Under the pieces are notes generated by a model that was not told where the DNA came from, made no database searches, and saw nothing but the letters and a program-made list of their open reading frames with translations. Of a DNA stretch of 46,871 bases, positions 17,580-46,871 are shown one piece after another. The DNA lies in IMG/VR virus record IMGVR_UViG_3300043104_000084; one strand, given 5' to 3'. Within the stretch, counting starts at the first letter, position 1. Every line of letters begins with the position of its first letter. Source of the DNA: a virus. Position numbers and translations under genes: made by a program.

Positions 17580-17912
17580 CTATATGTCAATATCAAGGAA
17601 AATAGCCTTTTGCCATTGGATTTTACTAATCCTGTCCTCTATTTCCTCTTCGCTCATTTCGCAACAATCCTCTAAATAGCAACGGAAATTTTCTGTATCG
17701 TCCTTGAAAACATACTGCTCTCCGTCTGCGTACATCTGTTCAAAGGTGTACTCTCTTACCCTTGCCTTTCCTATAACTCCGCTCCACCGCTCGCAATCGT
17801 CCCCGGCTACTACCTCACTTTCCACCATTGGAATAGTTGGTAATTCCGGGTTAAGGCTTGCAAGAATCAGATAATCCCTTACATTCCTTTCCTGTATATT
17901 GTGCAATTCCAT
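17580..17912 (-). CDS. Hypothetical acidic protein
   Basis: 110-aa ORF. Confidence 0.5.
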   Translation of the reverse strand: MELHNIQERNVRDYLILASLNPELPTIPMVESEVVAGDDCERWSGVIGKARVREYTFEQMYADGEQYVFKDDTENFRCYLEDCCEMSEEEIEDRISKIQWQKAIFLDIDI

Positions 17913-17915
17913 GTA

Positions 17916-18245
17916 TTACCGCCTTTCCCACGCCTTTAATTCAAGCGGATATTGTTCTTTCAGTTCCCTTGACCTTGCTACATTGGCTTGCAGTAATAGC
18001 CTTGCTTCCTGCGACTTTTCGGCTGTGAATACCTTGCCGTCCGTCATTTTCTCAAACCGTGCCACATTCCGCCTTAATGCTTCATCCGTTACCGATATGA
18101 CATATACGGCCCCGCAACGCCTACAGACAAAATATTTATGTTCAATATCTCCTGTCCGCTTCGTCCTCGGCTTTATCTTGTTGATTATCCTGCCACATTT
18201 ATTACAGGTTATTATTGCCGGTCCCTTTTTCCTGTTTAACTGCAT
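17916..18245 (-). CDS. Hypothetical zinc-ribbon protein
   Basis: CNKCGR...CRRCG. 109 aa. Confidence 0.5.
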   Translation of the reverse strand: MQLNRKKGPAIITCNKCGRIINKIKPRTKRTGDIEHKYFVCRRCGAVYVISVTDEALRRNVARFEKMTDGKVFTAEKSQEARLLLQANVARSRELKEQYPLELKAWERR

Positions 18246-18541: not shown

Positions 18542-19219
18542 CTATTCCTCTTCCGTGAGGATAGAAGATTTAAACACACAAGCCGGGCGAACGCCAATGT
18601 AACCATAGTACGCATTGTAGTCGTCGAGCGAACCGTCCGTGTACACAATCCGGGCATAATGGTTAATTGTGCTGTCAGCCGTGATTAACCACCACCAATC
18701 CTCTATCCGGTGGATAAACTGGCGGTACTTCCTGTACTGTTCACAAGTAAGCAGAAAAACCTTGTCCGTACTGCTGCCGTAATCCTTTAATCCGTCATCC
18801 GTTGTCAAATCCTGCTCCTGCTCCAAAATCGCCCCCGTATCCTGTCCTTTTGCTTTCATTTCCTCGCATAATGCGTTAAGGAATTTTCCGTTAAGGCGTT
18901 CTCTAAGGCTCGATTTCTTCCAATCGTTGCTGTTTTCCTCGTCAAATGCCTTGTACTCTACGATTTCGTCCGTAATGCAAAGTACCCTGTCCTCGTCCTT
19001 TGCCAATACATCCCAAACCAAACCGCCGATTTTTACCCTGCTGCCCTCTGCGTAATCTGCTAACTGCTTCATTTCCTTTTCCTCCTTGTTAATTTTGCTA
19101 ACCGTCCTGCACCACGATATAGCATTGTTTTTAGTTGCCTTTATAGTTCCCGTGATACTCATGTTTTGCCCGAAAATTTCACATTGTTTCGGCATATAAA
19201 GCACATCATCATGTTTCAT
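18542..19219 (-). CDS. DGR target protein 2: stand-alone variable C-type-lectin-like domain protein (VR2 at C-terminus)
   Basis: C-terminus WWWLITADSTINHYARIVYTDGSLDDYNAYYGYIGVRPACVF is paralogous to the VR1 region. Alternative start ATG 19072 has a strong GGAGGA RBS. Confidence 0.8.
   Translation of the reverse strand: MKHDDVLYMPKQCEIFGQNMSITGTIKATKNNAISWCRTVSKINKEEKEMKQLADYAEGSRVKIGGLVWDVLAKDEDRVLCITDEIVEYKAFDEENSNDWKKSSLRERLNGKFLNALCEEMKAKGQDTGAILEQEQDLTTDDGLKDYGSSTDKVFLLTCEQYRKYRQFIHRIEDWWWLITADSTINHYARIVYTDGSLDDYNAYYGYIGVRPACVFKSSILTEEE
18575..18658 (-). repeat. DGR variable repeat VR2
   Basis: 84 nt aligned to TR 28941..29024. 11 mismatches, all at TR adenines (coding strand). Confidence 0.85.
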
Positions 19220-19626: not shown

Positions 19627-19809
19627 CTATACTGTCCTCTGTGCCGTATCAGCCTTGTATGGAGTTCCCCCACGCTTTAACTCGTTGTAGATTGTTGCAC
19701 GGTGTACTCCTATACTTTCTGCAATCACTACTACACGCTCGCCGGACTTGCACATTTTTTCTATTTTCTGCCTGTCCTCGTAGTTCAATCGCCTATTTCC
19801 TTTTCTCAT
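19627..19809 (-). CDS. Stand-alone HTH protein resembling the N-terminal HTH of IS30 transposases
   Basis: LNYEDRQKIEKMCKSG...IAESIGVHRATIYNELKRG parallels MSRSDRIKMEALLNAG...HRSTIYREYEKG of the adjacent transposase. Confidence 0.55.
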   Translation of the reverse strand: MRKGNRRLNYEDRQKIEKMCKSGERVVVIAESIGVHRATIYNELKRGGTPYKADTAQRTV

Positions 19810-19825
19810 GCTCTTTTACCTCCTT

Positions 19826-19874
19826 AACAAAAAAAGAAAAATGCGTCTAAAGGTCACAAACCCTTGACGCATTT
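19826..19874 (-). terminator. Hairpin plus U-run directly upstream of the RBS of 19627..19809
   Basis: Minus strand AAATGCGTC-18 nt-GACGCATTT then TTTTCTTTTTTTG. Confidence 0.45.
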
Positions 19875-19885
19875 CGTATTTTTAG

Positions 19886-19932
19886 GTATAAAAAAGAAAT
19901 GCGAAAGAGTTTAATAACTCTTGTCGCATTTC
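19886..19932 (-). terminator. Strong intrinsic terminator downstream of the IS30 transposase gene
   Basis: 16-bp stem with a 1-nt bulge (GAAATGCGACAAGAGTT/AACTCTTTCGCATTTC) followed by TTTTTT. Confidence 0.7.
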
Positions 19933-19994: not shown

Positions 19995-21032
19995 CTATGC
20001 CAATTTCTGCAATTCTTCCTCGAATAACTCCGCTGATGTTCTATAATCAAAAATTCCCCTTGGATAGTGGTTTATCCAGTTCTCTATATATTCTATCTCT
20101 TCATCCGTTGTATCCTCAAAGTCTACTCCCTTTGGTATGTGCCTGCGTATGAGCCTGTTATTGTTCTCGTTCGTTCCCCTTTCCCAACTACTGTAAGGGT
20201 GGCAGTAAAAAACATAAGTCCTCTTTTCCTCTCTTAGTGCTGATTTCTCCATGCCCTCATAATCTGCAAACTCTACGCCATTATCTACCGTTATGCTTCT
20301 GAATATCTTATAGAACATATCGCCCCATTTTCTCTCTAACCGGTCCAATGCTTTCACTACAGACGCTGCCCCTTGGTCTTTCAGTTTGATAACTATTTCA
20401 TCCCTCGTCTTTCTCTCTGTCAGTACAAGCATACAGGACTTTGTAACGCCACGCTGCCCCTTTACCGTATCCATTTCCCAATGTCCGAATATCTCTCGGC
20501 TCTCTATCTCTTCCGGGCGATTTTCTATACTTTCTCCTGCACTTGCCCTCTTCTGTACCTTTACCTTTTTATTGTGTTTCTTCCTTTTCCCCTTTATCGG
20601 TAATTCCTTATTTGTCAGTTTAAGGAAGATTCCATTATCAATATATCTGTATAGCGTCCTCACGCTAATTGTTGTCTTAAATTCAATTCCCGACCTTGTG
20701 ACCTCTGCTAGTGCTGCTTCCGGGCTAAACCTGTCATTTACTATTTTGTCCTCTATGTACTCTGCCAACTCCCTATCGTTCCCGATTTTTAACGCCCTGC
20801 CTTTCCCCTCTTGGGCGTAATCGTGTGCTTTCTGTCCTAAATCGCTGCTATATCTTTCTTCCTCTGTGTAATCTGAATTTCTGTGTATATACTTTCCCTT
20901 TTCGTATTCCCTGTATATCGTACTCCTGTGAAAATGTAATTGTTCTGCTACCTCCGCCTTTGTATGTCCGGCGTTTAGCAATGCTTCCATTTTTATACGG
21001 TCACTCCTGCTCATTTGCTTAAATTTTCTCAT
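19995..21032 (-). CDS. IS30-family DDE transposase
   Basis: N-terminal HTH. HWEMDTV, ITVDNGVEF and SWERGTNENNNRLIRR (DDE triad context). Start at ATG 21032 after GGAGGTG. Confidence 0.85.
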   Translation of the reverse strand: MRKFKQMSRSDRIKMEALLNAGHTKAEVAEQLHFHRSTIYREYEKGKYIHRNSDYTEEERYSSDLGQKAHDYAQEGKGRALKIGNDRELAEYIEDKIVNDRFSPEAALAEVTRSGIEFKTTISVRTLYRYIDNGIFLKLTNKELPIKGKRKKHNKKVKVQKRASAGESIENRPEEIESREIFGHWEMDTVKGQRGVTKSCMLVLTERKTRDEIVIKLKDQGAASVVKALDRLERKWGDMFYKIFRSITVDNGVEFADYEGMEKSALREEKRTYVFYCHPYSSWERGTNENNNRLIRRHIPKGVDFEDTTDEEIEYIENWINHYPRGIFDYRTSAELFEEELQKLA

Positions 21033-21060
21033 TGTATACACCTCCAAACGCCAAAAGGCA

Positions 21061-21706: not shown

Positions 21707-21729
21707 TGTTACCCTCCTTGTTTTTTGCC

Positions 21730-21746
21730 GTGTCCTAATCGGTCAC
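21730..21746. repeat. 17-nt palindrome copy 3: GTGTCCTAATCGGTCAC (intergenic)
   Basis: Flanked by CC/GG. Ends about 15 nt upstream of the RBS of 21098..21706. Confidence 0.85.
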
Positions 21747-21846
21747 GGAGATATTGATTTTTTCTTTTTTTCCTGCTATATTATTAGAAACACTTGGGGC
21801 GGTTAGCAGGAATGTTAAGAAGTCCGCCCCTTGTGTGAATCCCTAT

Positions 21847-25302: not shown

Positions 25303-25320
25303 ACTTTCCCCTTTCTCTAA

Positions 25321-25344
25321 AATAAAAAGTGCGGTTTCCCGCAC
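25321..25344 (-). terminator. Intrinsic terminator after the tail-fibre accessory genes
   Basis: GTGCGG-GAAA-CCGCAC followed by TTTTTATTTT on the minus strand. Confidence 0.65.
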
Positions 25345-25352
25345 TCCCTATT

Positions 25353-25535
25353 TTAGATTTTATCGGATATTTCCTTTAGTTCGGTTGCTGCCTTTGAAAT
25401 ATCCTTGCTTACATTGTCTGTTATATAACCTCCTGTGGCCCTGCTGTGTTCCATTTCCAACGCCATATTGTAGATTATATCGGATTGAGCCTTAATTACT
25501 TCCTTTAGGCTTTCCATGACTTCCAACACGGTCAT
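25353..25535 (-). CDS. Hypothetical small protein
   Basis: ATG 25535 overlaps the stop of the XkdX-like gene (TAATG). Confidence 0.45.
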   Translation of the reverse strand: MTVLEVMESLKEVIKAQSDIIYNMALEMEHSRATGGYITDNVSKDISKAATELKEISDKI

Positions 25536-25693
25536 TACTTGTATTCCTCGCCTGTGATTTCCTTGTATTCCGTTTCCGTAATCACTCCGAAACCTACAAA
25601 CTTCTGTAACTGTGCCTTGGTACATCCTCCACGCCCGTAACGCTCCTTTAATACCTCAAACCGTGCTGAATGTGTTGTTGTTTTGCTTGCCAT
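25535..25693 (-). CDS. XkdX-family small protein (52 aa; below ORF-track cutoff)
   Basis: My translation: MASKTTTHSARFEVLKERYGRGGCTKAQLQKFVGFGVITETEYKEITGEEYK. The ...IT.EEY..ITGE.Y ending is the XkdX signature. Confidence 0.6.
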   Translation of the reverse strand: MASKTTTHSARFEVLKERYGRGGCTKAQLQKFVGFGVITETEYKEITGEEYK

Positions 25694-25698
25694 AATGT

Positions 25699-25866
25699 TT
25701 ACTCTCCTTTCGATTGCAACTCTAAGATTGCCAACTCTAAATCTGTGATTTCCAAGTCCTTTTCAATATCCCTTAATTCCAAGTCCGTAAGGTACTGCTC
25801 CATTTCCGGGATAACTTTTTCTTTCTGCCTTTTCTCCGTAAGGCTCTGCTTTCTTATCTGCTCCAT
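25699..25866 (-). CDS. Small coiled-coil protein (55 aa; below ORF-track cutoff)
   Basis: ATG 25866, 5 nt after GGAGGTG. Position equivalent to XkdW-type genes after a fibre gene. Confidence 0.4.
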   Translation of the reverse strand: MEQIRKQSLTEKRQKEKVIPEMEQYLTDLELRDIEKDLEITDLELAILELQSKGE

Positions 25867-25877
25867 GCTGCACCTCC

Positions 25878-27596
25878 TTAATCAAAACAGTATCCGATAG
25901 AAAACGCCTGCACTCTTTCCGTGTTATTGTTCTTTGTTATCGTAACCCGGACAGATACGCCGTAACGCTCGCTGTCAAATTCCGTATTCGTGAAATGGTA
26001 CGCTTCCTTGTTCTTAAATGCTTCGGTTGCGTCCTCCCACACTACCTCTGCGTTGTATGTGCAGTTTGTAACCTCAACCTTAATATCCGGCTCTCCGGTC
26101 TTGTCGTAGTCAAGGTTTACCATAATCTTTTCTGCCGGGGCGTCCGTTTCTACCGCTTTGATTTCAAATTTCAACGCTGCATAGAGTTTTGTAAACTCAA
26201 TGTATCGGTATGCTTCCGCACCGTCTGAATTAACCGCCTTAATGGTTAATTTATGGGTCTGCTCATTCTCCAGCATATCAAAACCGGACAGGTCAAAATT
26301 GATATTCTCCTGCTGCGGTGCTACTTCGATTTTTCTTACCTCTTCGTCATCCACATACTCGGTAATGCTGATACTCTTAAATTCCGAATCGTTGACTTGA
26401 TAGGTAATATCGAACGGCTGCCACTTATTCCCGATATTGGAATCTGTACCGCTGATTGCAACGCTTGAATTGATTTTGTTGAAAATTACCGTCTTTGTGC
26501 TTTCGTTTCCGTAGGAATCTTCCGCCCAAATCGTAAAGGTATGCTGCCCCGCTGATAATGTGTTAATCTTTGTGCCGGATATGCTTACCTTGTATCCGTA
26601 TTCCAGTACCACGGTGTCAAGCGTCTGTATAACCTCTCCGTCCAATGATACTTTTGCCGTTACCTCGTCATTGTCTGCGTCCGTGATTGAATAGTTGAGG
26701 TCGAACGGTGCGTTTTTATCCCCCAAGTTCTCCGAATCCGTATTGATTACAGGCGGTGCGTTCCAAACTATTGTATATGCCCCGTCTGTATCGGCTTCGT
26801 CAGATACAAGGATAGAAGATGAAACCACACAAGCCGGGCGAACGCCACTGTGACCATAGTACGCAGGGTTGCCGTTGAGCGAACCGTCCGTGTACACATC
26901 CCGGGCAGAGTAGGAATTGGACGCATACGGTGTTCTAAGCCACCACCACCAAGGACTGCTTGCTGCTAAACTGCTGCTTGTGTATTCCGACTTTGCCACC
27001 GCTTCCGCTGTCGGGTATGCAATCCTGTTACTCGCTGTGTTGAACAATGCGTAAATGCTGCCCTCTGCAATGCTGTTTTCGTTCGCTAATCCAACCTCCG
27101 TATTGGATAACAGGAAAACTTTCTGTGTTACATCTTCGTAACCTCCGCCGTCTGTAACCGTATTCTTTGCAACCCTTTTCGTTACTGTCAATAACTCCGC
27201 CCTTAACTGTTCGGAGAAATTGGTTAAAAATCCGGCTTCTTGGTCGTACTCGTTATAATTCGACCATACATTAGCGTTTGTCGGTGCTGCGTCCGCACTA
27301 TGCTGTGCTGAATACCATGCCCCCGCTGCCTTTTCGCTATTCAACCATTGCCTTATGTTTGAATAGAGCCAACGGTTATTTCCATACTGCTTCCTGTTTG
27401 AATCTGAATTGCCCGATTCGATAGCGTCAAAACATTTCAAGGTAATGATATTTGATGTAATCAACGCCGTGGAATTATCGGGGTCCCCTGCGTGATTGTG
27501 TTCCATAACGGTAAACAATATCGGTTTTCCGTTATAGGTTGTGAGCGTGTCTTTGACTTTTGTACCGCTCGGTAGGCTACTTAATAACTTTGCCAT
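25878..27596 (-). CDS. DGR target protein 1: receptor-binding tail fibre protein (N-terminal variable lectin-like domain, C-terminal Ig-like repeats)
   Basis: VR1 encodes ...WWWWLRTPYASNSYSARDVYTDGSLNGNPAYYGHSGVRPACV. The C-terminal half has repeated beta-rich modules (PPVINTDSENLGDK..., AISGTDSNIGNK...). Confidence 0.85.
   Translation of the reverse strand: MAKLLSSLPSGTKVKDTLTTYNGKPILFTVMEHNHAGDPDNSTALITSNIITLKCFDAIESGNSDSNRKQYGNNRWLYSNIRQWLNSEKAAGAWYSAQHSADAAPTNANVWSNYNEYDQEAGFLTNFSEQLRAELLTVTKRVAKNTVTDGGGYEDVTQKVFLLSNTEVGLANENSIAEGSIYALFNTASNRIAYPTAEAVAKSEYTSSSLAASSPWWWWLRTPYASNSYSARDVYTDGSLNGNPAYYGHSGVRPACVVSSSILVSDEADTDGAYTIVWNAPPVINTDSENLGDKNAPFDLNYSITDADNDEVTAKVSLDGEVIQTLDTVVLEYGYKVSISGTKINTLSAGQHTFTIWAEDSYGNESTKTVIFNKINSSVAISGTDSNIGNKWQPFDITYQVNDSEFKSISITEYVDDEEVRKIEVAPQQENINFDLSGFDMLENEQTHKLTIKAVNSDGAEAYRYIEFTKLYAALKFEIKAVETDAPAEKIMVNLDYDKTGEPDIKVEVTNCTYNAEVVWEDATEAFKNKEAYHFTNTEFDSERYGVSVRVTITKNNNTERVQAFSIGYCFD
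26826..26931 (-). repeat. DGR variable repeat VR1
   Basis: 106 nt aligned to TR 28941..29046. 13 mismatches, all at TR adenines (coding strand). Confidence 0.9.
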
Positions 27597-28749
27597 TCTT
27601 TTTTACCTCCTGCTTTTTCTTTCTTGCTCTTTGCCTTTGCTCATTGTATCTTTTCAGTTTTTCATATCTCGCCTTTTCTGTATCAGAGAGGTAATCAATG
27701 AATAAACCATAAAAATAACAATCCATTTCCTGTAACATATAGTAGGTATCTCCACGGCTTGCGTGTGCTTTCCATGATTGGTAGGAATCTTTCACGGCTT
27801 CGTATGTTATTTCCTTACGGTCTACCTTTGCTTTCATTTTCCGTAGTTTCTGCCTTTCGTGGCTCTTGCTTTTCGCCTTTATCCGGCAAACTACTTTCCC
27901 GCTTTCCGTAAGGTATACATGAAACCCCAAATAATTTATGCCTGTCGTAACAGGCACAATCTTTGTTTTCTTGGCATTAAGTTTTAACCCTAACCCCTCT
28001 GCCATTTTCCCTATTTCCTTTAGGCAGAATTTCAAGTATTCCTTGCTCTCATGGATTAAATAAAAATCATCATTGTACCTTGCAAATCCTCCGATTTTCA
28101 ACCGTTCTTTTATCATGTGGTCTATCGGACTTCCTGCTATCAATGCGTCCAACTGTGATAACTGGTTGCCAAGCGGTACGCCGTACTCTCCGCCTGTGCT
28201 TGCGTGTATCATCCGTATAAGTCTGATTATCCGCTCATCCTTAAACTCACGCTCGTATGCCCTGTTTAACAACTCATGTGATAAACTGTCAAAATATCCC
28301 GAAAAATCACATACAAGGATGTATCCGCTTGTGCCGTGTATCCTGTAATGGTGTCTTAAATCCTCTTTCAGACAATCCAATGTAAAATCTGTGCCTTTTC
28401 CTTTTAGGCTCGCACCATTGCTATAAACAAATGTCGGTGCAATCCTCGGTGTTAAGATATTGTCACATAGATTTTTCTGCACAACTCTATCTTTGTATTT
28501 TGCACTTTTTATATTTCTTAGTTTTCCTCTCTCGTTGACCGTAAAGCAATGATATTTCCCTATGCTATACTTTTCTGACATCAAGAGGTACTGCAAATAC
28601 AATGTGCTTTCCAATGCCCTTAAATCGTATGTTGCTACGCTGTCTTTCCACCTTTTGCCCTGCCTGCAATTCCTGTGCGATTCGTACAGATTTCCAAAAT
28701 CTGTGAGGATTCCGTAATCGTCATATTTATTTTCTTTTCTTGTAATCAT
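27577..28749 (-). CDS. DGR reverse transcriptase
   Basis: YNDDFYL (YxDD box) and VPLGNQLSQ (the DGR-type GxxxSQ motif). Start set at ATG 28749 (MITRKENKYDDYG...). The track ORF runs on through the spacer into the TR. Confidence 0.9.
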   Translation of the reverse strand: MITRKENKYDDYGILTDFGNLYESHRNCRQGKRWKDSVATYDLRALESTLYLQYLLMSEKYSIGKYHCFTVNERGKLRNIKSAKYKDRVVQKNLCDNILTPRIAPTFVYSNGASLKGKGTDFTLDCLKEDLRHHYRIHGTSGYILVCDFSGYFDSLSHELLNRAYEREFKDERIIRLIRMIHASTGGEYGVPLGNQLSQLDALIAGSPIDHMIKERLKIGGFARYNDDFYLIHESKEYLKFCLKEIGKMAEGLGLKLNAKKTKIVPVTTGINYLGFHVYLTESGKVVCRIKAKSKSHERQKLRKMKAKVDRKEITYEAVKDSYQSWKAHASRGDTYYMLQEMDCYFYGLFIDYLSDTEKARYEKLKRYNEQRQRARKKKQEVKKNGKVIK

Positions 28750-28940
28750 GTCGTTTTTCTTTCTGAAAAAATCCACACCGCATACAAATGAGTACATAAC
28801 CCAACTACTCCAAATGTGGGGCATGGGTGTCGGTGTTCCTTTATTTGTCATGCACATATATCCTGCACGACCGGGGTATACCCTCCTTGTGTGGTATTCT
28901 GATTTCTGCGGTAAAAACCGCCTACTCTGTCGCATTTTTC

Positions 28941-29046
28941 CACTCAATCCGGGCGAACGCCATTGTTACCATTGTACGCATTGTTGTTGTTGAGCGAACC
29001 GTCCGTGTTCACATTCCGGGCATTGTAGGAATTGGACGCATACGGT
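28941..29046 (-). repeat. DGR template repeat (TR)
   Basis: Coding-strand TR is rich in AAC/AAT codons and carries an in-frame TGA at its 3' end. Lies between avd and RT. Confidence 0.9.
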
Positions 29047-29072
29047 TAAACAGGGTATACCCCAAAATCTTT

Positions 29073-29507
29073 TTATTTTGTTTTTACTTCATCCGTGAAT
29101 TTTTCTCCAAATCTTTCCTCGTCTTTCTTTAACCATGCTGCGGTTAATGTCCTAACCTCAAATACTGACTTCGCCCAAAATGACGCTTTATCATAACCCA
29201 AATTGAATAATTCCTTGCTAATATCTATCAGCGTCATAAGGCTACGGCAATACGCCATAGCCTGCCTTTGTTTTGTCCGTCTGAATAGGTATTCTTCTCT
29301 CGTCTTTGGGAATATTTCGTTTGCTTCAATCAAGCAAGCCACTATTTCCACGGCTTTATCCTGCATTTTATTTACTACCGATAACCTGTAACGCTTTGGA
29401 AAATTCTTCTCATTATTCGTAATCCTCAAAGTGTATATAACCATTTCTTTCGCCTTTACGATAACGGTTAAATCTCCCTGCGTCCTTTCTCCTGCCCTTA
29501 CGCTCAT
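29073..29507 (-). CDS. avd: DGR accessory variability determinant (Avd-like four-helix-bundle protein)
   Basis: 144 aa, basic, pattern ...KAKEMVIYTLRITNNEKNFPKRYR... Located immediately upstream of the TR. Confidence 0.7.
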   Translation of the reverse strand: MSVRAGERTQGDLTVIVKAKEMVIYTLRITNNEKNFPKRYRLSVVNKMQDKAVEIVACLIEANEIFPKTREEYLFRRTKQRQAMAYCRSLMTLIDISKELFNLGYDKASFWAKSVFEVRTLTAAWLKKDEERFGEKFTDEVKTK

Positions 29508-29511
29508 AGGC

Positions 29512-30243
29512 TTATGCGTACAGGCACTTGTTTGTACTGTCGTACATACCGCTTACCATGATTACATCATCATTACTTGAAAATGTTTCTATAACCACAT
29601 TGTCCGAATCCATAATATCAGCGTCCGTTAATGTTGCCATTGTCATAGCCATTTGCAACATTTCCCTTTTCATGGTATCCATGCTCTTTTCCGTGTTTCC
29701 GACAATGCTTAACGCTTCCTGTATCTGCTCCTGCGTTGTCTGATTGATATTGTCAATGAGAGCCTTTACCTCCAAGCGTAAATTTTCAACATCTTTCTTT
29801 GTTGCCATAACTACGCTTGGGTCTACAATCAGTTCCACGCTCTCTGTATTTGCCAATGCAATTTCCATTGACAAATCCAATTCATGTACTACGCCGTCCG
29901 ATACCCTTACTTTCTGCGTGTCCGGCGTGTTGCAAATTGCAATCAATACGCCGTCCTCGTCAAACAATCCCATTTCACGGATTGTAAAACCGCCTGCGTC
30001 TGACGGTATCACGGATTCCACGATTAAGAGGTTTTCCGATTCCTCACTAATGTAGCAGGCGTTTACCGTTCCCCTCCATACCTCGTTTTTTAACGCCGTT
30101 GCTGCGGTTGTCGGATTGTAAAACCGTCCTCCGCCATCTCCTACCGCAAACTGTGTAATGTTTACTTTCTTTTCCTCGTTCAATGCTTCAAGCATTTTCC
30201 GTGTGCCCGAATCGGTCACAAGTGTAAAATATGTGCTTGCCAT
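29512..30243 (-). CDS. Tail fibre N-terminal/collar protein (P2 gpH N-terminal-domain-like)
   Basis: ITQFAVGDGGG...P....T.L.NEVWRG and FTIREMGLFDEDG motifs are typical of the tail-collar fibre domain. Confidence 0.65.
   Translation of the reverse strand: MASTYFTLVTDSGTRKMLEALNEEKKVNITQFAVGDGGGRFYNPTTAATALKNEVWRGTVNACYISEESENLLIVESVIPSDAGGFTIREMGLFDEDGVLIAICNTPDTQKVRVSDGVVHELDLSMEIALANTESVELIVDPSVVMATKKDVENLRLEVKALIDNINQTTQEQIQEALSIVGNTEKSMDTMKREMLQMAMTMATLTDADIMDSDNVVIETFSSNDDVIMVSGMYDSTNKCLYA
30203..30219. repeat. 17-nt palindrome copy 5: GTGCCCGAATCGGTCAC
   Basis: Encodes VTDSGT at residues 9-14 of the fibre collar protein. Confidence 0.9.
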
Positions 30244-31080: not shown

Positions 31081-32218
31081 CCTCTATCCCCCCAAAAGTC
31101 ACATTACAGGTTTCCAGTACCGCAACGCTTCCCTTTGGTATCTCCGTAAATGCAGGCTCTTCAATCACAACCCTTTTTATTCCCGATTCCATGAGCATTG
31201 CATTAAAATAGGACGGGTTAATATCCCGCCCCATTTTTTGGGTCTGCCATAATGTATAATTTTCTGTAGCGTTTTCTACCGCTTCTCTGATTTCATTTGT
31301 ACTTGCCGTGCTGTCCGTTGAAATGTAATAAGTAGCCTTTATGTTAAATGGTACTGTGTCCGGTGCTGCCACTATAACCTTGTCTGTCAGAGGTCTAATA
31401 TCTTCCTCGCTTAAATGCTCCTGCACCTTGCTTAATAATTCCTCTTCGGGCAATTCTCCGTTTTGGCACATAATACGAACATCCACCACTCCCGGCGTTG
31501 GACTTCCTGCGTATACATCACATATCAATGCCGATACTGTTTTCGCTTGATATTCGTAACCGCCTTTCGGTCCCGCCGTTGAGTATGTTTCCTCGGACTC
31601 TCTCATACGGTTATAAAAAGCCGTGTCCGTTTCTTCCTCGCTTCCTCCGCTCGATTCCGTTACATTCTCAACCGACTTGTAATATAAAAATTCGTCCGAT
31701 ACCAATTTGCTAATCTGACCGGGTGCAAATCCGTTTCCGATTTCTCCCTCTGTTTCACATACCGCCTGTACCTCTGCGTAGTTCTCGCCTGCTTTGAATG
31801 TCAAATGCCCTGTAGTCAGAAAGTTTATATTTCCGTCAACCGTTACCTCTAATTCGTCTGTGATAATGTAATCGCTCGTTAATGTCGTTGATATAGTGAA
31901 TCCCAATGTAACAACTGCTGCCTGTGGCTCTAATCTGCTGACATTATGGAAAATCTCGCTTAACGAATCCAAATTATTTCCTGTTGCGTATCTCGGTAAG
32001 TTCTGCTTGGCAGATTCGTTTATCTCTACCCTTTCCTGTATAATCACGCTTGCAAGCCATAATATAAACGCCCTTACCGGGTCTGCCGGGTAAAGCGTCC
32101 TCCCTGTAGTTGCTTCATATCCTGCTATGAGTTTATTTACCAATGTTTCGGTGTCTGTATCTACAAACTCAACCTCTGGTAAGTTACTCGGTATATTCCT
32201 CGTTGTCGTATTCGCCAT
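31073..32218 (-). CDS. Baseplate J-like protein
   Basis: 381 aa. Position between gp25-like and gpI-like genes; gpJ-like N-terminal pattern. Confidence 0.75.
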   Translation of the reverse strand: MANTTTRNIPSNLPEVEFVDTDTETLVNKLIAGYEATTGRTLYPADPVRAFILWLASVIIQERVEINESAKQNLPRYATGNNLDSLSEIFHNVSRLEPQAAVVTLGFTISTTLTSDYIITDELEVTVDGNINFLTTGHLTFKAGENYAEVQAVCETEGEIGNGFAPGQISKLVSDEFLYYKSVENVTESSGGSEEETDTAFYNRMRESEETYSTAGPKGGYEYQAKTVSALICDVYAGSPTPGVVDVRIMCQNGELPEEELLSKVQEHLSEEDIRPLTDKVIVAAPDTVPFNIKATYYISTDSTASTNEIREAVENATENYTLWQTQKMGRDINPSYFNAMLMESGIKRVVIEEPAFTEIPKGSVAVLETCNVTFGGIEDE

Positions 32219-46730: not shown

Positions 46731-46772
46731 AAAAAAGCACCCTCGGAACGCTTTATATCTTCCTTTGGTGCT
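46731..46772 (-). terminator. Leader hairpin plus U-run downstream of late promoter copy B
   Basis: Minus strand AGCACC-25 nt (with inner GGAA/TTCC)-GGTGCT then TTTTTTC. Weak stem. Confidence 0.3.
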
Positions 46773-46871
46773 TTGCTATTATACATAATATCATAAAAAA
46801 TCGGGCAATGGCGGGCAATCTTTTATAAATCTCTCGGCACTACCCTAAATATCCTGTTTCTGCCCTTTTTA
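46745..46871. repeat. Second copy of the 127-bp assembly overlap
   Basis: Identical to 1..127. Confidence 0.95.

Follow-up and report, generated by a model that had tools for sequence, protein, structure and literature searches.

A complete tentaclin-type diversity-generating retroelement with one template repeat and two variable repeats in a gut-type phage genome

On the minus strand of the window, the whole 46,871-nt stretch of viral DNA that was analysed (IMG/VR record IMGVR_UViG_3300043104_000084), an avd gene is followed by a template repeat (TR), a spacer, a reverse transcriptase (RT) gene and a gene with a variable repeat (VR1), here called target 1 (Table 1). A first-pass annotation made from the letters alone had read the cassette in this order, and all open reading frames were found where it had placed them, including that of target 1 and that of the tail-collar protein which precedes avd. 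The RT and target 1 genes overlap by 20 nt, which include the RT stop. A second variable repeat, VR2, lies in a remote gene (target 2), at a distance of 10.4 kb and within the non-structural genome half; the first-pass annotation had spoken of two VRs, giving no location for the second. A third VR was not found in the whole window. The locus is a real, complete diversity-generating retroelement (DGR) in a gut-type phage genome, and the core of the earlier reading, a complete avd-TR-RT element with its target directly downstream and following a tail-collar gene, is supported.

Table 1 Features of the DGR, its targets and its spacer RNA (positions in the window)
Feature	Position	Strand	Details
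Tail-collar fibre protein	29512..30243	minus	Pfam Phage_tail_fib 8.2e-50; context, outside the DGR
avd (accessory variability determinant)	29073..29507	minus	144 aa; phrog_3206 "Avd protein of DGR" 6.9e-21; then TR, spacer, RT, target 1
TR-bracketing long-range duplex, 5′ strand (GGGGTATACCC)	29053..29063	minus	11 bp with 28883-28873
TR	28940..29046	minus	107 nt, 30 adenines, in-frame stop
IMH*-like 3′ end of TR (GGCGTTCGCCCGGATTGAGTGG)	28940..28961	minus	Fixed differences from VRs at 28948 and 28944
Spacer between TR and RT		minus	190 nt; structured
Stem-loop just 3′ of TR (GCGG/CCGC)	28908..28921	minus	4 pairs, 3 with compensatory changes in relatives
Spacer strand CCACACAA	28887..28894	minus	Predicted pairing with TR 3′ end TTGAGTGG (28947-28940)
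TR-bracketing duplex, 3′ strand (GGGTATACCCC)	28873..28883	minus	Covariation
Stem-loop (28871-28847), then A-rich run (28846-28836)	28836..28871	minus	Stem base 4 pairs
Further conserved spacer helices	28775..28836	minus	28836-28831 with 28780-28775; 28794-28792 with 28785-28783
DGR reverse transcriptase	27577..28749	minus	390 aa; Pfam RVT_1 4.7e-17; phrog_1423 1.2e-93
Target 1	25878..27596	minus	572 aa, tentaclin-type: DUF6273 lectin-like (aa ~1-265) and three Ig-like domains
VR1	26825..26931	minus	aa 223-257 of target 1; IMH-like end 26846-26825
Target 2	18542..19075	minus	~177 aa, single-domain DUF6273; mechanical ORF reaches 19219
VR2	18575..18657	minus	83 nt, C-terminal in target 2; IMH-like end as in VR1

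Judged by its motifs and nearest relatives, the RT belongs to the DGR clade. DGR RTs are recognised by an (I/L)GxxxSQ motif together with a YxDD catalytic site, and the LGNQLSQ and YNDDF motifs, both present as first recorded, correspond in the alignment to IGSLTSQ and YMDD in bRT of the Bordetella phage. The best relative in the PDB is bRT itself (8ub7, the Bordetella DGR RT), which is matched over the full length at 4.6e-26, whereas group II intron RTs reach 5e-10 at best; the earlier grouping with DGR RTs thus held. The nearest phage relatives in GenBank are the DGR RTs of nd12, Roseburia phage Shimadzu and Faecalibacterium phages. ATG 28749 is the preferred start of the gene, since structured RNA that is conserved lies upstream of it and the relatives begin at this point. 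A retron, group II intron or defence RT that happens to lie beside an ordinary duplicated segment has a probability close to nil. The best NCBIfam match is indeed a group II intron RT/maturase model, TIGR04416 (2e-26), but its 93 bits, against a cut-off of 300, reflect general RT kinship only, and the retron St85 model scores 34 against 235. Rfam gave no match at E≤1 between 27400 and 29700, hence neither intron nor retron RNA, and the adenine-only pattern described below (chance 7e-9) recurs in two VRs and in every relative with a readable TR/VR pair. RT profile scores, the bRT match, the Rfam result and the adenine-only mismatches have already refuted this reading.

The avd product is recognised by its PHROG profile at 6.9e-21, as expected from the earlier assignment, whereas the matches to NCBIfam DivGenRetAVD (2.9e-5, 24 bits) and Pfam bAvd (0.004, 18 bits) lie under the curated cut-offs of 80 and 40. 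Sequence and profile searches of the PDB returned no match to a solved Avd. Like its counterparts in other DGRs, the gene immediately precedes the TR, and its size and position fit; an Avd role is presumed for it here.

The first-pass annotation had paired TR with VR1 over 106 nt. The pair stands and its length was recomputed as 107 nt; an independent repeat finder returned the same two segments (28940-29046 and 26825-26931) with 88% identity over 107 nt. A recount by TR base confirmed 13 mismatches, each at an adenine of the coding-strand TR, for which the hypergeometric chance, with 30 A in 107 nt, is 6.6e-9. VR2 behaves in the same way: over 83 nt of homology all mismatches (10/10) are at TR adenines, and the chance is 2.4e-7 when calculated for an 84-nt block that includes the boundary base 29024/18658 (11 mismatches, 25 A). 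Translated in the VR frame, the TR gives PYASNSYNARNVNTDGSLNNNNAYNGNNGVRPD and terminates in a stop codon, which bears out its description as AAY-rich with a stop. About 11-13 codons, mostly AAY-templated, are randomised, and they lie in a surface beta-hairpin. In a set of eight full-length proteins that share at least 90% identity with P0002, the VR columns of highest entropy are indeed the codons with TR adenines.

At the 3′ boundary VR1 and VR2 both read GGCGTTCGCCCGGCTTGTGTG where the TR reads GGCGTTCGCCCGGATTGAGTG. The difference at TR positions 28948 and 28944 is common to VR1, VR2 and the VR1 of a 99% identical relative, and at 28948 an A in the TR faces a C that is constant in every VR of 10 related elements. 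These two positions are fixed TR/VR markers and not the outcome of stochastic mutagenesis; therefore, 11 of the 13 mismatches are genuine adenine-mutagenesis differences between TR and VR1. The GC-rich block followed by TR/VR-specific bases, which had been likened to the IMH/IMH* arrangement, behaves as such. In addition to the two fixed differences, a genome from another sample (L012, Logan SRR10148552; 99.0% identity over 5.4 kb) has a TR variant at 28951, inside the GC-rich block, that is absent from its VR. This natural marker puts the 3′ limit of information transfer within the block. A significant hairpin was not found after VR1 or VR2, unlike in the prototype DGR of Bordetella phage BPP-1.

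Six helices in the TR flanks and the spacer are 90-96% paired across 10 elements, and 19 pairs carry double-sided changes; none of 500 shuffles reached the observed value, and slid controls gave 19-58% pairing. The long-range duplex that brackets the TR is paired in 97% of the cells, with three pairs changed on both sides. Its 5′ strand is equivalent to the strand that avd contributes to the BPP-1 "cPRT Stop", but lies in the avd-TR intergenic region and not inside avd. In 207 DGRs, Handa et al. described stem-loops that follow closely on the TR, and the stem-loop at this place is a candidate Avd-binding stem-loop. The predicted duplex of spacer and TR 3′ end has eight pairs (87.5% of cells paired, four pairs changed on both sides) and is a candidate template:primer duplex, in which A28887 may be the priming nucleotide; its geometry, with 3 nt before the next duplex, resembles that of BPP-1 Sp47-56/TR117-129. 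The following stem-loop with its A-rich run is comparable to the cPRT Stop stem-loop and adenosines of BPP-1, and three of the four pairs of its base show compensatory changes, including a strand swap in relative L040. Such changes are also seen in three of six pairs of the helix at 28836-28831 and in all three pairs of that at 28794-28792. As far as can be judged from covariation, the spacer carries equivalents of the BPP-1 priming duplex, the cPRT Stop and the TR-3′ stem-loop, and the map agrees with the proposal of Handa et al. that the priming architecture of the Bordetella phage is conserved in distant DGRs.

By homology to the BPP-1 system, the following mechanism may be envisaged. An RNA comprising the avd end, the TR and the 190-nt spacer would fold such that the spacer pairs with two segments, the TR 3′ end and the sequence immediately preceding the TR. 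The RT-Avd complex would then prime cDNA synthesis from a spacer nucleotide, copy the TR and misincorporate opposite adenines, and the cDNA would replace the homologous VR. The direction would be set by the GC-rich IMH-like end, which is present in the VRs and missing in the TR.

The comparison with L012 bears on the activity of the element. One AAC codon is missing from its TR, and the AAC-templated stretch concerned is 3 nt shorter in its VR1 as well. Moreover, its VR1 differs from the present one at 12-14 sites, all of them TR adenines. The 107 nt of VR1 hold about one third of all differences between the two genomes. Codon loss in both repeats together with adenine-templated differences is indirect but specific evidence of recent retrohoming, with TR-to-VR information transfer within the last 1% of divergence. 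Within the clone itself, VR1 and VR2 show no consensus variation in at least eight near-identical contigs from several sample series, in which assembly masks minor alleles. This could be taken to mean that the DGR is a fossil, intact in its anatomy but with TR information no longer mobilised in the clone and VRs frozen by selection; in a related lineage (L037) avd, TR and RT have indeed been lost, and the VR that is left is frozen. We consider this very improbable. The ORFs of RT and avd are intact and the catalytic motifs present, the spacer RNA elements are kept with compensatory changes, and L012, only 1% diverged, has another VR1 and the codon deletion in TR and VR1. The near-identical contigs are at least 99.9% identical throughout and therefore represent one clone that carries little information.

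Target 1 is, on the basis of its model and matches, a tentaclin with an N-terminal lectin-like domain that presents the VR as a surface beta-hairpin, followed by three Ig-like domains. Residues 41-259 match Pfam DUF6273 (1.2e-38), and a single alignment with the tentaclin of nd12 spans residues 1-572 including the C-terminal domain (42% identity). In the AF2 model (pLDDT 92.9) strands 230-234 and 240-244 make up a beta-hairpin in VR1, and three beta-sandwich domains follow after residue ~270; Foldseek matches of this region are Ig/Fn3 arrays, and the Pfam Big_13 match is weak. Direct Foldseek matches to classical C-type lectins were weak as well (probability ≤0.2).

That the cassette separates the collar gene from a variable receptor-binding protein had been claimed before; the position is right, and the receptor-binding role was deduced from position only. 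Any ligand or virion location given for either target is putative. A different role is conceivable, in which the DGR is real and target 1 is a Hoc-like decoration protein or adhesin on head or tail whose ligand is not a bacterial receptor but mucosal glycans or host proteins, host recognition being left to target 2 or another protein. This hypothesis was already raised in the tentaclin paper (PMC10743442), the PHROGs family is labelled "Hoc-like head decoration", and the only solved homologue of the lectin-like domain sits in a gut-bacterial IgA peptidase. In addition, fibres usually have the opposite polarity: here the variable lectin domain is N-terminal, and anchoring has been proposed for a conserved Ig-like domain at the C-terminus. 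Yet the gene has the tail-collar gene on one side and small XkdX-like genes on the other, where tail modules of this type usually encode the distal fibre or receptor-binding protein, and tentaclin is the target in related genomes with one DGR target. We regard the decoration role as unlikely, if worth keeping in mind.

Target 2 matches Pfam DUF6273 at 2.7e-15, and its homologues are 175-178 aa long. Its AF2 model (pLDDT 93.6) aligns with the C-type-lectin-like N-terminal domain of the IgA peptidase 9qa6 at a TM score of 0.72. The gene is found among early, non-structural genes, a placement conserved in phages nd4 and nd12. It is tempting to speculate that recognition of the bacterial receptor is not the task of target 2 and tentaclin alike: target 2 may act outside the virion, with its binding specificity diversified to some other end, and tentaclin may be an outward-facing adhesin for non-bacterial gut ligands. 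A single template would then drive two different binding functions, but we hold this to be improbable.

The first-pass annotation had the cassette inserted in the tail module. Its position after the collar gene is correct, but an insertion event is not borne out. Eight relatives (RT identity 58-83%) carry a cassette of identical avd-TR-RT-target order at the same site, as do nd4 and nd12, and L037 has a deletion scar where avd, TR and RT are gone; the cassette is therefore ancestral at this site rather than a recent insertion. A TR/VR pair is readable in seven of the eight, with mismatches that are adenine-only or nearly so.

All in all, we are confident that the element is best explained as a functional tentaclin-type DGR of a contractile-tailed phage of ~46.7 kb, in which one TR serves two targets; the genome is probably complete. 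The same layout is known from phages nd4 and nd12 (Baykov et al. 2023, Int J Mol Sci 24:17324; GenBank OR777945, OR777946), and the present element adds another case. Both are likewise small myoviruses with the order avd-TR-RT-target 1, a target 1 of 569-579 aa (N-terminal DUF6273 C-lectin-like domain, three Ig-like domains, VR near the 5′ third) and a small single-domain DUF6273 target 2, with a shorter C-terminal VR, in the non-structural region 11.7-14 kb downstream of the TR. The lambda-like head module is shared with nd4; as in nd12, the lysis genes and target 2 have an IS30-family transposase gene between them. Identities, however, are only 36-42% for tentaclin and 37-41% for the RT, the Phage_tail_fib collar gene upstream of avd distinguishes the present phage, and a nucleotide-level match to GenBank phages was not found.

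With BPP-1 (mtd-avd-TR-brt) the element shares adenine-specific TR-to-VR transfer, the pair of Avd and RT, a GC-rich IMH-type VR end and a variable domain of the C-type-lectin type. In BPP-1, by contrast, the target precedes avd and the VR is at the C-terminus, whereas here target 1 follows the RT and VR1 occupies the N-terminal third of its protein; the present element also has two targets, of which one is remote. The DGR is ordinary but well formed and leaves current understanding unchanged. Its value is that of a well-resolved, annotated addition to the tentaclin-type DGR phages, which shows natural traces of recent retrohoming, provides a spacer-RNA map backed by covariation and offers material on binding by tentaclin and the second target. 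Other phages of gut Clostridia, the Faecalibacterium prophages FP_Brigit and FP_Mushu (with "Hoc-like" targets) and Roseburia phage Shimadzu, have DGR RTs 34-40% identical to the present one and targets composed of a lectin domain and Ig-like domains, but with four Ig-like domains, low sequence identity and other phage backbones.

The order and coordinates that the first-pass annotation had given for a 144-aa ORF, a reverse transcriptase (RT) and a 572-aa target on the minus strand of the window were borne out by the ORF list and the sequence (see the table). An independent repeat finder detected a single long direct repeat of 107 nt (88% identity), in which 28940-29046 matches 26825-26931; these are the template repeat (TR) and the variable repeat of target 1 (VR1). 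In a base-by-base comparison the two differ at 13 positions, all of which are adenines on the coding strand of the TR, as had been claimed. Since adenines make up 30 of the 107 nt of the TR, the chance that all 13 mismatches fall on A is 6.6e-9. In the frame of the VR, the TR reads PYASNSYNARNVNTDGSLNNNNAYNGNNGVRPD followed by a stop, and VR1 is translated to PYASNSYSARDVYTDGSLNGNPAYYGHSGVRPACV.

The RT was assigned to Pfam RVT_1 (4.7e-17) and phrog_1423 (1.2e-93). Its best solved relative is the RT of the diversity-generating retroelement (DGR) of Bordetella phage BPP-1 (bRT; 8ub7, 4.6e-26), with residues 15-343 aligned to 12-320 of the 328-residue bRT chain, LGNQLSQ opposite IGSLTSQ and YNDD opposite YMDD. 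Group II intron RTs scored about 1e-9 in the solved-structure comparison, the NCBIfam group II intron model reached 93 bits where its cut-off is 300, and Rfam found no intron or retron RNA, either in the window at gathering thresholds or at the locus at E≤1. The DGR interpretation withstood attempts at refutation: mismatches are confined to adenines and the RT is, among solved structures, closest to bRT rather than to group II intron RTs. The finding itself is genuine and was described well. Among PHROG families the 144-aa ORF hits 'Avd protein of DGR' (6.9e-21); because it scores under the curated NCBIfam and Pfam cut-offs and has no match among solved structures, by sequence or by a 6-sequence profile, its assignment as Avd from sequence is good but not airtight. 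A promoter and terminator scan gave counts equal to the shuffle expectation.

Features of the element in the window, with the repeats of the related phages nd4 and nd12
Feature	Coordinates	Strand	Basis or remark
Avd ORF, 144 aa	29507-29073	-	ORF list and sequence
Intergenic stretch	between the 144-aa ORF and the RT ORF	-	ORF list and sequence
RT ORF	end at 27577	-	ORF list and sequence
Target 1 ORF, 572 aa	27596-25878	-	ORF list; 20-nt overlap with the RT stop
VR2, 83 nt homologous to the 3' part of the TR	18657-18575	-	10 mismatches, 10/10 at adenines
IS30-family DDE transposase-like gene (HTH_38 and rve)	19995-21047	-	between lysis genes and target 2
Helix a, 11-bp duplex	GGGGTATACCC 29063-29053 (just upstream of TR) with GGGTATACCCC 28883-28873 (spacer)	-	covariation
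Helix b, stem-loop just 3' of TR	28921-28908	-	covariation
Helix c, stem-loop directly after duplex a, then A-rich run	28871-28847	-	covariation
Helix d, 8-bp pairing	TR 3' end TTGAGTGG 28947-28940 with spacer CCACACAA 28894-28887	-	covariation
Helices e, two further helices	spacer	-	covariation
nd12 repeats	TR 17824-17925; VR1 19811-19912; VR2 31950-32025		GenBank record
nd4 repeats	TR 19640-19734; VR1 21713-21807; VR2 31387-31463		GenBank record

A full-text search for DUF6273 and DGR led to nd4 and nd12, small myoviruses of the gut whose DGRs have two targets each (Baykov et al. 2023, PMC10743442). Their target 1, 'tentaclin', has 569-579 aa with an N-terminal DUF6273/C-lectin domain, three Ig-like domains and a VR near the 5' end, and their target 2, a small protein consisting of one DUF6273 domain, carries a shorter VR at its C-terminal end (PMC10743442). 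The window has the identical element order, including a remote second target, and shares with nd12 the IS30-family transposase gene between lysis genes and target 2. Over its full length, target 1 is 42% identical to the tentaclin of nd12 and 36% to that of nd4; for the RT the values are 41% and 37%. Because the layout is shared but no nucleotide-level match to GenBank phages was found, the element is regarded as a new, distant member of the described tentaclin-type DGRs. DGRs are common in gut phages; to a specialist a DGR is unsurprising here, and its exact architecture is already published. The added value is modest and lies in natural marker-transfer evidence from a 99% relative (L012), a scar of DGR loss in a relative (L037), a covariation map of the spacer, and the conserved place of the second target among non-structural genes, a puzzle already noted.

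This second target came with the GC-rich end GGCGTTCGCCCGG, which occurs three times in the window (0.04 expected): in the TR, in VR1 and at 18583. The last site belongs to VR2, which lies at the C-terminus of ORF 18542-19219 (minus strand) and is outside the coordinates of the original finding; a third VR was not found in the window. The mechanical ORF has 225 aa and its homologues, aligned from residue 49, have only 175-178 aa, so the start is likely ATG 19075. No signal peptide was found in target 2. As in nd4 and nd12, it is surrounded by genes that are early or non-structural (HTH, YopX-like, Rep-like). Adenine-masked TR patterns had no match in IMG/VR or in JGI metagenome contigs and a single one in GTDB genomes, a target-2 homologue in a Jutongia sp. 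MAG (L006, CAZFFA010000003.1). The region 6968-7228 of L006 is 78% identical in nucleotides to target 2 over 256 nt and its VR-like end fits the adenine-masked TR pattern; neither TR nor RT is visible in the 8 kb examined.

Both targets contain Pfam DUF6273 (1.2e-38 for target 1, 2.7e-15 for target 2). The AF2 model of target 1 (pLDDT 92.9) has a globular N-terminal domain (about 1-265) and, after it, three beta-sandwich domains, and VR1 (aa 223-257) takes in a beta-hairpin with strands 230-234 and 240-244. With the whole model, Foldseek returned Ig/Fn3 arrays and the IgA peptidase of Thomasclavelia ramosa, 9qa6. Since Ig-domain matches swamp this search, the lectin fold was assessed through the model of target 2 (pLDDT 93.6), for which 9qa6 is the sole convincing match (E 1e-7, TM 0.72) and classical C-type lectins match weakly. 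The part of 9qa6 matched is its N-terminal domain, a C-type-lectin-like core according to its authors (PMC12237041). For the DUF6273 domain of the two models, no other solved structure is a convincing relative. That domain is dispensable for catalysis by the peptidase.

At two of the 13 mismatches between TR and VR1 (28948 and 28944), VR1, VR2 and the VR1 of L012 all have the same base. The base that comes after the GC block is, in every one of ten related elements, A in the TR and C in the VR. These positions are fixed TR-versus-VR markers (IMH* versus IMH) and not products of random mutagenesis, as had been suspected in the first-pass annotation. For a hairpin of the BPP-1 type downstream of the VRs, the folding energy was no better than that of shuffles (z 0.28 and -0.25).

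Evidence of activity was sought in contigs from other samples, some picked by an identical Avd and others by an identical neighbour gene. For the most part they share at least 99.9% identity with the window and have its VR1 and VR2 unchanged; they are one clone and therefore uninformative on activity, which leaves L012 (Logan SRR10148552; 99.0% identity over 5.4 kb). One AAC codon is missing from its TR, and in the same AAC-templated stretch its VR1 is shorter by 3 nt. The VR1 of L012 and that of the window differ at 12-14 positions, depending on gap placement, all at TR adenines, and about one in three of all differences between L012 and the window falls inside the 107-nt VR1. The TR of L012 also has T in place of C at 28951, within the GC-rich block, a substitution that is absent from its VR, whereas adenines up to 28963 were re-templated. 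Information transfer thus has its 3' limit within the GC block, where an IMH would be expected to set it. Proteins were compared as well, in an alignment of eight full-length members of a sister cluster at 90% identity; the most variable VR residues (224, 227, 229, 230, 233, 235, 236, 241-244, 247, 249 and 250) are those whose codons have adenines in the TR. In relatives that share at least 90% identity with one another, aa 207-209 of target 1 (window 26970-26978) are highly variable too (SSS, NDG, NTN, SDA, HAD and others). This patch is outside TR homology, about 40 nt upstream of VR1, and its variability may be due to ordinary selection acting on an adjacent loop of the binding face.

The cassette had been described as inserted in the tail-fibre module, and this did not hold. 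In eight relatives, whose RTs show 58-83% identity, avd-TR-RT-target occupies the same site, following tail-collar or baseplate genes. L037, a contig named uncultured Catonella by its source, has the tail module of the window and the cassette is missing: homology runs to 29364 and resumes at 27649, a deletion of about 1.7 kb (L037 3290-3500). What is left is a 5' part of avd that contains a stop codon, and the final 70 nt of the RT, next to an intact tentaclin with a frozen VR; most of avd, TR and RT were lost. L037 therefore carries a deletion scar and the cassette is ancestral in the clade. A recent insertion was rejected as a reading because the site is common to the relatives and L037 has a deletion instead of an empty site.

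The regions from avd stop to RT start of ten related elements were aligned, and helices were scored on this alignment in two sets. In set 1 (helices a, b and c) 95.8% of cells are paired, with 9 pairs changed on both sides, against 33-58% paired in slid controls; in set 2 (d and e) 90.2% are paired, with 10 pairs changed on both sides and 19-57% in slid controls. Pairing d has one internal position that is non-canonical in most sequences. In neither set did any of 500 shuffles reach the observed covariation; with ten related sequences this control does not amount to a probability, and the slid controls and compensatory changes carry more weight. Because the stretch upstream is a conserved structured RNA, ATG 28749 is favoured as the RT start, and a longer version (mechanical ORF from TTG 28947; gene calls of 406-424 aa) was dropped. 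A spacer-motif scan of IMG/VR returned only four already known relatives and chance matches. In the cryo-EM structure of the Bordetella phage RNP, a stem-loop lies just downstream of the TR, a TR:spacer template:primer duplex is followed after two nucleotides by an avd:spacer duplex, and the latter by a short stem-loop and adenosines, the 'cPRT Stop' (Handa et al., bioRxiv 10.1101/2023.10.23.563531). The order of TR/spacer helices in the window mirrors this arrangement. By analogy, A28887 is the candidate for the priming nucleotide, and the cDNA would begin near 28948.

The window has an exact 127-nt terminal direct repeat (1-127 and 46745-46871), typical of assembler overlap, and the breakpoints of this sequence differ in other assemblies; the window probably represents a whole phage genome, circular or circularly permuted, of about 46.7 kb. 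A lambda-like head module (terminase, portal, protease, capsid) is combined with a P2-like contractile tail, and the upstream neighbours of the cassette are Baseplate_J, Tail_P2_I and a Phage_tail_fib collar protein (Pfam). Host leads are weak associations, with Lachnospiraceae only. A gene of this IS30-like kind has the same relative position in nd12 (25320-26357) and in the contigs L001 (nucleotide identity 67%) and L039. It appears to be a resident gene of the phage, possibly the integration enzyme, and not a fresh IS insertion.
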